From Escherichia coli (GTDB taxonomy: Bacteria > Pseudomonadota > Gammaproteobacteria > Enterobacterales > Enterobacteriaceae), in the NCBI RefSeq assembly GCF_003334815.1, contig NZ_QOWO01000022.1: DNA of 64,000 bases; one strand, written 5' to 3'. Made by a program: the position numbers. This document shows positions 1 through 3,000 of the stretch, piece by piece; position 1 is the first letter of the stretch; each line of letters begins with the position of its first letter.

Positions 1-3000
1 GGGCGGGATTTTTCGCCGCTCTGAATGATTTCACTGCGGGATTTTCCGCCGTTCATGAAGTTGATGACCTCGATATCATCCTCCCGGCCAAAACGTCGGG
101 AGAGATACCAGATTGTCCTCGTGGTATCGTTCTGTGCCTTTCCGTCAACAAAGGTAAAGCCTCTTCCCCAGCTGAGCGGGTTGAGCAGCCAGGCAAAGGT
201 GGTTTCTGTTTTACCGCCACCGGTGGTGGCAAAAAACATGACATGCCGGGTGAGGTCATCCATGCTCAGCCAGAGCTCACGACCGATATCATTGATACGG
301 CGGTAACCGACATAAAAAATCCCCCGTGCGGGGGATGTTTCATCTGCTTCATACTGAAACAGGGTGGGCCAGAAGCTGAAGAGGCTTCGCCTGACCTTTC
401 TGTCCTGGGAGGGGTCATCAAGGCTGAGCGTCATGGGCATACGCAGGGGGCATCGCCAGCGTTGCAGCGTGAATATCACGGAGGTGACCAGGGTGAACAG
501 CAGACAGACAGGAAGGGCCAGTGGCCATATCAGGGCCGTAATGATACTGCCGGCCAGACACAGACCAATGATGTTCAGGTTGTGCAGTGCATTCCACAGC
601 GGGTTTCCCCAGGCCGTGCGGTGTATGAGGTCAGGATTAACGTGATGCTGGCTCATTGTGATTATCCTCGGTATCTGTGGCTTTCAGGAACAGGCTGACG
701 GTAGTGGCGTCTTTCAGGATGCCGGACGGCAGGTGCCAGCCGGTATCGGATAACACCCATGGGGTACCGCCAAAACCGAACTGGCGGAAAGCCTGGTTAT
801 TGACATCGATGGCAGCACGAGCAGCGGTCAGACACTTTTCATCCGGTGCAGCCGGTGCATCGCCGGTGGGTGCCATACCACCGTCTGCGGAATACAGCTG
901 ATGCCATCCGGTCGCCCGTTTTTGTGCGTCCGGTTCACACAGCAGTGGCGCAGTCCGGTTTGTGCTGGCCTCTCCGCCGATTACGGAGACCGGATAAATC
1001 ACCACGCTGAATTCCCGGGCCAGTTGCTTAAGCGCGGGCTCCAGAAGACGGCAGTTGATGCATGCGGGGTCAAGGAAGGCGTAGAGTGTGCGTTCATGAC
1101 CAGTGGAGAGATTAATGGTGAACATACCCCGGTCCGCGTTGCGTTTAAGTACAGTGGCCAGATTACGGCGGGCTTCAGCGACCAGAGTCTTTTTGTCTGC
1201 TGTTATCGCCGGGGTAGCGGATGTCTCCTGCATTTCCTGTGGTGCCGGGTGAACGATTTCATTTTTCGTCTCTGACGGGGCTACTGACCGGACAATTTCC
1301 TTGTCGATGTGTAATGGTGCTGTTTCTGTTACGGATTCTGTGACAGGTACCCTGAGAGGGGAATCGCTGTCCGGTTTCAGTAAAATATATCCGGCTGTTA
1401 CCGCTGTCAGAAGTGCCAGCACTAATCCTGCACCGTATATCAGCCCTCTCATGAAGCTGGTTTTCCGGGCAGGAAGTTCTGCATATGCCGCGCTCAGACA
1501 GCTGTCAATCGCGGAGAGCATTCTGCCGATGTGATGTCCGGGACGTTCAGTATCAACGGTATCAACAAGCAGTGTTTCGGTTATTTCACGAAAAGGGGTG
1601 CTGAAGGACAGGTGCATCAGCCTGTTATTACGGTTAATCAGTGCGCCCAGTTCTGTAACCGGCAGGATGGCAATAACCTCCTGACCACCGTCAGGGTACA
1701 GGGCGGTCAGGGACAGGTGTTTATTGTTCAGTGTTGCAGTGTAGCGGATGGTCATTGTGCTTTTTCCTTGTCGGCGGGATGCCGGGTTTCAGTGGTTTCA
1801 GTGGTTTCAGTGGTTTCGGTGGTTTCACCAGTATCTGAGCCTTCATCGTTATCATGGCGGCGTGGTATCACGTCATCCGTGAGTGACCAGCGGGTCCTTA
1901 TCTGACGTCTGCGATCGCGGTCTGGCTGAGGTTCGTCCCATATCAACCCCAGTCTCAGCATGTCCTGCCGCAGCCCTTCAATGGCTTCTTCCACACAGGG
2001 TTCCGGGCAGGGCAGGCCGAGACGACACGCTTCATTTTCTGCCCGGGCAACGGCCACCACGCCGGCCCCTTCGATGAAGCCTTTTGTGGTGTTTGCCCGG
2101 TGAAGGGCATAGAAGAGCGTCCGGTCAACGCCCTTGAGCCACAGCCAGTTCGGAGGCGTCAGGCGCAAATCATGTGCGTAAAGCCAGACCAGACCGCTGC
2201 GAACGTAACGGTGCTGCCTGAGCCACTTTTGTGCGCCTTCTGTTTTGATGACCCGGATAAAGGCGTTTCTGGCCAGTGAATACACCGGCGTGCTGAAACG
2301 CCCCTGGTCCCGTTTACTTTTGAGCCTGCAGGAGAGATTGAGGTTGTTCATCAGGGCTACCGCTGCTTTCCGGTCACCGAGGAAGAACTGCAGGCCAAAG
2401 ATGGCAAAGAGCGCTTTTTCATGTGGGGCCATGTCTTTCCAGCTGGTCAGTGGTTGCCCCAGTTGCGCCATGAAGCACTGGCGTGTGGACGCAACATCGA
2501 GCTGCATGTTGCGGATAAGGTTGTTCTGCTCCACAAAGGCTTCGGGGGTTAGTGCGACACGGCGCTCGGGACGTTTTTGTCCGTGGAAGAGTCTGTTGTT
2601 GTCTCCATCAGCCAGAACGGGGGCGATCGCCGGTGACAGAGCTGAAAAAATATGGGGCAGTGTGTGGATATTCAGTGGCCTGCGGGTAAAACGGGGCTGG
2701 GCCGGATGGTGAAACCACATCCACAGAAAGCCGAATGTCATGGGAAGCAGAATCAACCAGAGGATCCCCACTGTCCGGGACATAACATCCAGCCACTGGC
2801 TGAAAGTGATGGTTGCCGCGTTGTTAGCAGTGATGGCCAGCAGGTTGTAACGGGGGGCGGCAAAGTTGTGAAAGGGCCCCCAGTCAATCATGCCCCACAG
2901 TGTGTGCAGGATCAGGCAGGAGGCGAAGACGATTTCAGGTAAAAAGCGCCAGATGATAATCGCAAAGAGCAGGCATATGGCACCGACGATATACCATATA

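Follow-up and report, generated by a model that had tools for sequence, protein, structure and literature searches.

A 9-bp in-frame tandem repeat of variable copy number in trbA of IncB/O/K/Z-type conjugative plasmids, probably a near-neutral product of slippage

Within the 64,000-nucleotide stretch of Escherichia coli contig NZ_QOWO01000022.1 (assembly GCF_003334815.1), analyzed here at its full length and referred to as the window, a short tandem array located in the conjugation gene trbA was investigated. The array occupies positions 1785..1827 and was detected by Tandem Repeats Finder with a period of 9 bp, 4.8 copies, 94% matches and a score of 79. Its consensus is GGTTTCAGT, of which agtggtttc represents another phase, and the plus strand is composed of three GGTTTCAGT units (1785-1811), one GGTTTCGGT unit (1812-1820) and a terminal GGTTTCA (1821-1827). 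A search of the window for the two-unit pattern, allowing up to two mismatches, returned three matches, all of them at the array, compared to 0.01 expected from shuffled sequences. On the coding (minus) strand, the array consists of GAA ACC ACY units and reads GGT (GAA ACC ACC)(GAA ACC ACT)x3 GAA ACC CGG, the sole imperfect unit carrying a synonymous ACC in place of ACT. It encodes (ETT)4-ET at residues 406-419 of TrbA, flanked by G405 and R420 and followed by HPADKEKAQ and the stop codon, and the repeat ends ten residues before the C-terminus. An initial annotation of this DNA had described about five plus-strand copies of agtggtttc at 1784-1828, read in frame at the C-terminus of a trbA-like protein encoded on the minus strand. 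These statements were confirmed, the host being the open reading frame of 429 amino acids at 1752..3041. The peptide quoted there was correct in frame and repeat; however, the string TETTETTETTETTE is slightly out of phase, since the 14 residues actually encoded are ETTETTETTETTET.

The trbA coding sequence (1752..3041, minus strand, 429 amino acids) starts with GTG. Its open reading frame, annotation, Pfam result and PDB profile match identify the product as a DotM-like subunit of the coupling complex in I-type (type IVB) conjugation. At identical coordinates, NZ_CP027600.1 carries a gene annotated as 'IncI1-type conjugal transfer protein TrbA'; this E. coli plasmid record is typed IncK2/Z and is 100% identical to the window over positions 1500-3300. 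Elsewhere, this record (L021) shows point differences from the window at approximately 3614 and 5863 and small indels from approximately 11463; past approximately 11.4 kb, its annotation coordinates shift by 1-3 bp and are not transferable. TrbA carries the cytoplasmic DotM_C domain (Pfam PF23127, E = 3.3e-47) at amino acids 185-359, corresponding to window positions 1965..2489 on the minus strand, with the repeat lying outside this domain. Furthermore, the TrbA family profile matched the DotM/IcmP structure 6sz9_B in the PDB (E = 6.1e-23), and the likeness to the solved DotM ends at approximately residues 358-361. Because TrbA scores 71.5 bits against the NCBIfam DotM equivalog NF033890, whose cut-off of 230 is not reached, its sequence identifies it as a relative of DotM of the TrbA type and not as DotM itself. 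An exact-sequence look-up of the window's TrbA in a protein cluster collection returned no entry. In pMS7163B, a cluster-2 plasmid of the I-complex, a trbA::Cm mutation abolished conjugation, which was restored by complementation in trans (PMC10286972).

In order to place the repeat within the protein, an AlphaFold2 model of TrbA built with a 24-sequence alignment was considered. The model comprises a confident helical fold up to approximately residue 364, followed by residues 372-374 and 376-429 with predicted local distance difference test (pLDDT) values below 50, no secondary structure and means of 34-47 for blocks of ten residues. According to this model, the repeat is part of a predicted disordered tail beyond DotM_C (amino acids 372-429; window 1755..1928, minus strand), which includes a basic segment RDRRRQIRTR, the acidic segment HDNDEGSDTG-(ETT)n and the distal segment RHPADKEKAQ. 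By manual count, the acidic block formed by HDNDEGSDTG and the array has a net charge of approximately -(5+n), that is, about -6 at n = 1 and about -18 at n = 13.

Copy numbers were compared among related plasmids by means of a 241-bp query across the array, with matches in 470 plasmid records and, for 381 complete E. coli genomes, in 393 records. Each ranking was sampled at regular intervals, giving lengths for 58 rows of the plasmid list and 57 rows of the E. coli genome list. Full-length matches measured 214, 223, 232, 241, 250, 259, 268, 277, 286, 295, 304, 313 or 322 bp, and all 115 sampled lengths equal the 241 bp of the window plus or minus multiples of 9 (-27 to +81), i.e., 1 to 13 ETT units. 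A single unit was present in 6 of the 58 plasmid rows and in 7 of the 57 genome rows. The corresponding counts were 5 and 13 for two units, 3 and 3 for three, 5 and 8 for four, 7 and 7 for five, 8 and 6 for six, 7 and 4 for seven, and 5 and 5 for eight. Longer arrays were counted in 2 plasmid rows and 1 genome row (nine units), 3 and 1 (ten, eleven and twelve units in each case), and 1 and 0 (thirteen units). Plasmids with n = 1 were common and still typed as conjugative. The same range of 1 to 13 units, in frame throughout, was found in 17 fetched loci and several database proteins. The proposal of the initial annotation that units are gained and lost without frameshift is thus borne out by related plasmids, and the uniform repeat number across homologues that would have spoken against it was not observed, the copy number differing even between identical flanks.

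Differences of this kind could in principle stem from errors of sequencing or assembly at so short a repeat. Many TrbA database entries are indeed labeled 'partial' and stop exactly at the array, ending in ...DTG(E) (e.g., P0002, P0058). Short-read contigs evidently break at this site, which would explain many of these truncated entries. However, every one of the 115 sampled lengths is offset by an exact multiple of 9, and identical copy numbers recur in separate record series (12 units in pNFI1 and pSB17033, 11 units in two Danish plasmids). Moreover, arrays of at most 117 bp are shorter than typical reads, and random errors would not keep the phase of the unit. An artefactual origin of the copy-number differences is therefore considered extremely improbable.

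Among the fetched loci, at least three allele types of the TrbA tail were distinguished, namely DEGSDTG-(ETT)n-ET-R with ACT third codons, to which the window belongs, DEDTDTG-(ETT)n-E-KQ with ACC third codons, and DESTDTG-(ETT)n-ET-Q, likewise with ACC third codons. Arrays are homogeneous inside each allele type, with either ACT or ACC at all third codons. Variants within units were mostly synonymous at the threonine codons (ACT, ACC, ACA), and interrupted units such as EIT and EPP were rare and tolerated in the fetched loci. The distal tail was kept as HPADKEKAQ, HPADKEKEQ or HPADKEQAQ in the 17 fetched loci and several database proteins. Phase variation at a simple-sequence contingency locus was excluded, since the 9-bp unit is a multiple of three and both frame and distal tail are kept in every allele examined. 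The trbA array resembles such loci in being hypermutable through a tandem repeat; unlike them, its unit is a multiple of three, and neither on/off switching nor a promoter is involved. The array was also considered as a recombination junction, as two BLAST matches (H99, H100) covered only one side of it; the fetched loci proved to be ordinary alleles of eight units, and the partial matches were alignment artefacts.

The pace of copy-number change was assessed relative to the plasmid backbone. Six IncK2 plasmids originating from several record series (pTMSA970, pNFI1, pSB17033 and three Danish records) showed 0 differences within a flank of 3,149 bp, and yet their loci (L006, L010, L011, L012, L014 and L015) contain 7, 10, 11, 12, 12 and 11 units, respectively. 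Over the same length of 3,149 bp, the window differs from pSTM32_108 (L004) by one mismatch, with 4 versus 5 units. In addition, comparison of pSB17033 (120,714 bp) with the RL97 plasmid (120,705 bp) across 50 kb revealed a single 9-bp unit and a single single-nucleotide polymorphism (SNP) as differences, and the lengths of the two records differ by exactly 9. Since identical flanks carry different n, and since one unit accompanies one SNP over 50 kb, the copy number of the array changes much faster than point mutations build up in the backbone.

A second tandem repeat of the same backbone served as control. This 222-bp repeat (window 33858-34268), a 74-codon duplication with 1.9 copies and 79% identity, resides in a primase gene (32039..36055, minus strand, 1338 amino acids, primase/LPD7-domain protein) and showed constant copy number in 30 sampled relatives. 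This constancy rules out a general instability of repeats in the backbone and confines the instability to the 9-bp array.

Based on these results, the array is proposed, with a probability of roughly 80%, to be a slippage-driven, in-frame coding variable-number tandem repeat (VNTR) in the trbA gene of IncB/O/K/Z-type plasmids of the I-complex, a repeat which is near-neutral and scales a disordered acidic tail. Perfect 9-bp units would favor frequent gain and loss of units, most likely because strands slip while the plasmid replicates or while DNA is synthesized in conjugation, and to some extent through unequal recombination. Each unit adds Glu-Thr-Thr and approximately -1 charge. Its gain lengthens, and its loss shortens, the predicted disordered tail that hangs from the cytoplasmic, DotM-like domain of TrbA in the coupling complex; this is the sole direct effect at the level of the product. 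As the frame is never broken, an on/off switch would not result. Slippage fits the data because changes comprise whole units, single-unit differences occur on identical backbones, and arrays are homogeneous per allele type. Slippage as mechanism and near-neutrality represent the most likely interpretation.

Four points weigh against this proposal. Firstly, one locus was fetched for each length class; the diversity among these loci is therefore overstated, and the comparisons demonstrate the existence of pairs with identical flanks and different n rather than a rate. Secondly, a chimeric tail and mosaic flanks indicate that recombination also shuffles the trbA tail region. Thirdly, pure arrays are kept in at least three diverged trbA allele types, which could reflect selection for the repeat, in conflict with strict neutrality. 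Finally, slippage is deduced from the comparison of sequences.

The second of these points bears on the question of whether the variation arises mainly from RecA-dependent events, namely unequal crossing-over or gene conversion involving plasmid copies or alleles residing in the same cell, instead of from slippage. The database protein P0064 joins the type-B prefix DEDTDTG, a single ETT and the type-A suffix ETRHPADKEKAQ, a combination which implies exchange between alleles within or beside the array. Moreover, the type-B tail was found both on window-like flanks (25 differences in 2.4 kb) and on strongly diverged flanks (approximately 280-370 differences). Arrays of 15-117 bp, however, are short for efficient RecA-dependent exchange, and single-unit differences between otherwise identical plasmids fit slippage. 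The two mechanisms are not exclusive, and recombination as the predominant source is considered unlikely.

The position of the array close to the neighboring gene was also taken into account. The gene trbB (637..1755, minus strand), identified from open reading frames, sequence and annotation, encodes a DsbC-family thioredoxin-fold protein. In NZ_CP027600.1 and the 17 fetched IncB/O/K/Z-type loci, the order trbA-trbB (DsbC-like)-trbC (similar to DotL/type IV coupling proteins) is found within a transfer region of the mating-pair formation type MPF_I (MOB-suite). The trbB start codon overlaps the trbA stop codon (ATGA, window 1752-1755), 30 nt past the array on the mRNA, and the AAGGA Shine-Dalgarno sequence of trbB sits within the codons of the trbA tail. 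In the IncB/O/K/Z clade, this overlap suggests translational coupling of both genes.

With regard to this arrangement, the array might act at the level of DNA or RNA, as iterons, as a promoter element or as an unstructured leader setting trbB translation, the peptide being incidental. Its closeness to the trbB start codon and the A/C-rich composition of the unit on the mRNA are compatible with such a role. However, no promoter-like site was found near the array on either strand and no terminator at the array. Furthermore, when the mRNA was folded for n = 0 to 13, the predicted unpaired probability from the Shine-Dalgarno sequence to the ATG remained steady at 0.80-0.85, and an RNA-level effect on trbB was rejected for this reason. 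The mostly synonymous variants of the unit point to constraint at the protein level, and so variable a copy number does not suit an element that depends on spacing. A role of the array as nucleic acid is hence regarded as very improbable.

Among known systems, the variable QQP repeat of F-like TraD is, by analogy, the closest counterpart of the TrbA array. The QQP region is located in the unstructured C-terminal extension of TraD and varies in length, with 5 residues in F and 23 in R1 (PMC3245843), and the acidic tail following it (Asp710-Phe717) docks TraM through its Phe717 end (PMC7555446, PMC3159463). Both repeats consist of three-residue (9-bp) units that are in frame and variable in length between related conjugative plasmids, and both precede a short distal tail in a C-terminal extension, unstructured in TraD and predicted to be so in TrbA, of a coupling-complex component. 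In contrast, TraD is a VirD4-type ATPase and TrbA a DotM-like, non-homologous partner, QQP is neutral whereas ETT is acidic, and the TraD tail ends in the TraM-binding Phe, whereas the TrbA tail of the window's clade ends in ...RHPADKEKAQ and is devoid of an acidic-aromatic end.

The IncI1 (R64-type) TrbA is an orthologue encoded in the same trbA-trbB-trbC order, with 76% protein identity to the window's TrbA over residues 1-400 and the conserved GLIWDEPQPDRDR..WSLTDD segment in common. It differs by the lack of an ETT repeat, by an acidic tail of 8-10 residues ending in Phe (e.g., PRTPATDNEF) and by an 18-nt spacer between trbA and trbB instead of the ATGA overlap. The ETT array is thus a clade-specific elaboration of an acidic tail, and it is probably dispensable for the core function of TrbA. 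TrbA homologues from outside IncB/O/K/Z (P0003-P0043; L016 2600-2730, L017) nearly all possess a short acidic stretch and a C-terminal Phe, with endings such as TDNEF, DEESPF or DDDSPF, and most of them have no repeat. The resemblance of these endings to Asp710-Phe717 of TraD suggests, by analogy, a partner-docking role for the TrbA C-terminus.

Legionella DotM/IcmP shares with TrbA the DotM_C domain, N-terminal membrane helices and a place in a type IV coupling complex with a DotL-like ATPase (here TrbC), but has no long acidic repeat tail, the homology to TrbA stopping at approximately residue 360. DotM recruits substrates by means of acidic Glu-rich peptides bound via R196/R197, R217 and R314/R315 (PMC5802825). 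In the alignment to 6sz9_B, only R314 of these basic patches matches a conserved arginine (TrbA R307), and the remaining patch arginines align with an insertion, V, D or T in the TrbA profile. Binding of the acidic tail to DotM-like basic patches of TrbA itself is unsupported, as the DotM arginines are mostly not conserved.

These comparisons raise the question of whether the array serves as an adaptive tuning device, in which the length and charge of (ETT)n modulate relaxosome docking, the recruitment of transferred proteins (e.g., primase) or the interaction of TrbA with TrbC, so that rapid copy-number change would provide heritable and quickly adjustable conjugation efficiency or substrate preference. 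Several observations are in line with such a function: transfer requires TrbA (PMC10286972), acidic Glu-rich peptides mediate substrate recruitment by its homologue DotM (PMC5802825), other TrbA tails are acidic and Phe-ended like the TraM-docking tail of TraD (PMC7555446, PMC3159463), and the pure array is retained in at least three diverged allele types. Furthermore, F-like TraD has its variable QQP repeat in the equivalent region, and the authors describing it suspected TraD variation behind plasmid-specific behavior (PMC3245843). Conversely, plasmids with conjugative typing have anything between 1 and 13 units, and no particular n is obviously preferred; TrbA of IncI1 functions without the repeat; and of the arginines binding acidic peptides in DotM, R314 alone has a conserved counterpart in the TrbA profile, R196/R197 and R217 having none. 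Taken together, adaptive tuning is rather unlikely, and it is doubtful that (ETT)n acts on the coupling complex of I-complex plasmids as a rheostat that mutates rapidly and alters relaxosome docking or the recruitment of transferred proteins. If it did, plasmid lineages could quickly re-tune transfer rate, cost or substrate choice in new hosts, in parallel to the variable QQP region of F-like TraD, which it would also help to explain. Near-neutral length variation of a flexible acidic tail is probably the correct reading, with a modulatory role at most.

Coding VNTRs used in multiple-locus VNTR analysis (MLVA) of enterobacteria likewise possess short in-frame units, conserved flanks and copy numbers that are polymorphic between close relatives, and serve as fast-evolving markers. 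The trbA array differs from them in being plasmid-borne and located inside a conjugation gene.

Further features were recorded elsewhere in the window. A gene for an S6-family serine-protease autotransporter of 1363 amino acids (SPATE-like; 5189-9280, minus strand) is inserted between trbA and excA in the transfer region, and its product features an autotransporter beta-barrel (TIGR01414, E = 1.5e-74). An open reading frame of 511 amino acids at 11673-13208 (plus strand) resembles phosphoethanolamine transferases but remains far under the curated cut-offs for CptA and EptA (108 bits versus 404). The annotation of NZ_CP027600.1 places the DinQ-like type I toxin gene dqlB just upstream of trbA (window approximately 3540-3635). 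In the coordinates of that record, which are shifted in the window by small indels, a Hok/Gef toxin gene was found at approximately 13.9 kb and a pilV shufflon with its site-specific recombinase at approximately 42.3-45.6 kb.

No mention of the trbA repeat, or of its use as a typing locus, was found in the searchable full-text literature, subscription-only papers on IncK and IncB/O plasmids lying outside this search. The array is an ordinary, though apparently undescribed, hypervariable marker and not a new mechanism. Plasmids of the IncB/O/K/Z type (I-complex) disseminate blaCMY-2, along with further resistance and virulence genes, among E. coli and Shigella of poultry, cattle and human origin. 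Because the array differs between plasmids that otherwise match across tens of kilobases, it could allow plasmid transmission to be traced at high resolution where SNPs carry no information. Moreover, should the length of the tail affect the coupling complex, the array would offer simple genetic access to the part that TrbA/DotM-like proteins play in conjugation, which is poorly understood; should it have no effect, the array would cleanly illustrate the neutral dynamics of a repeat in a disordered tail.

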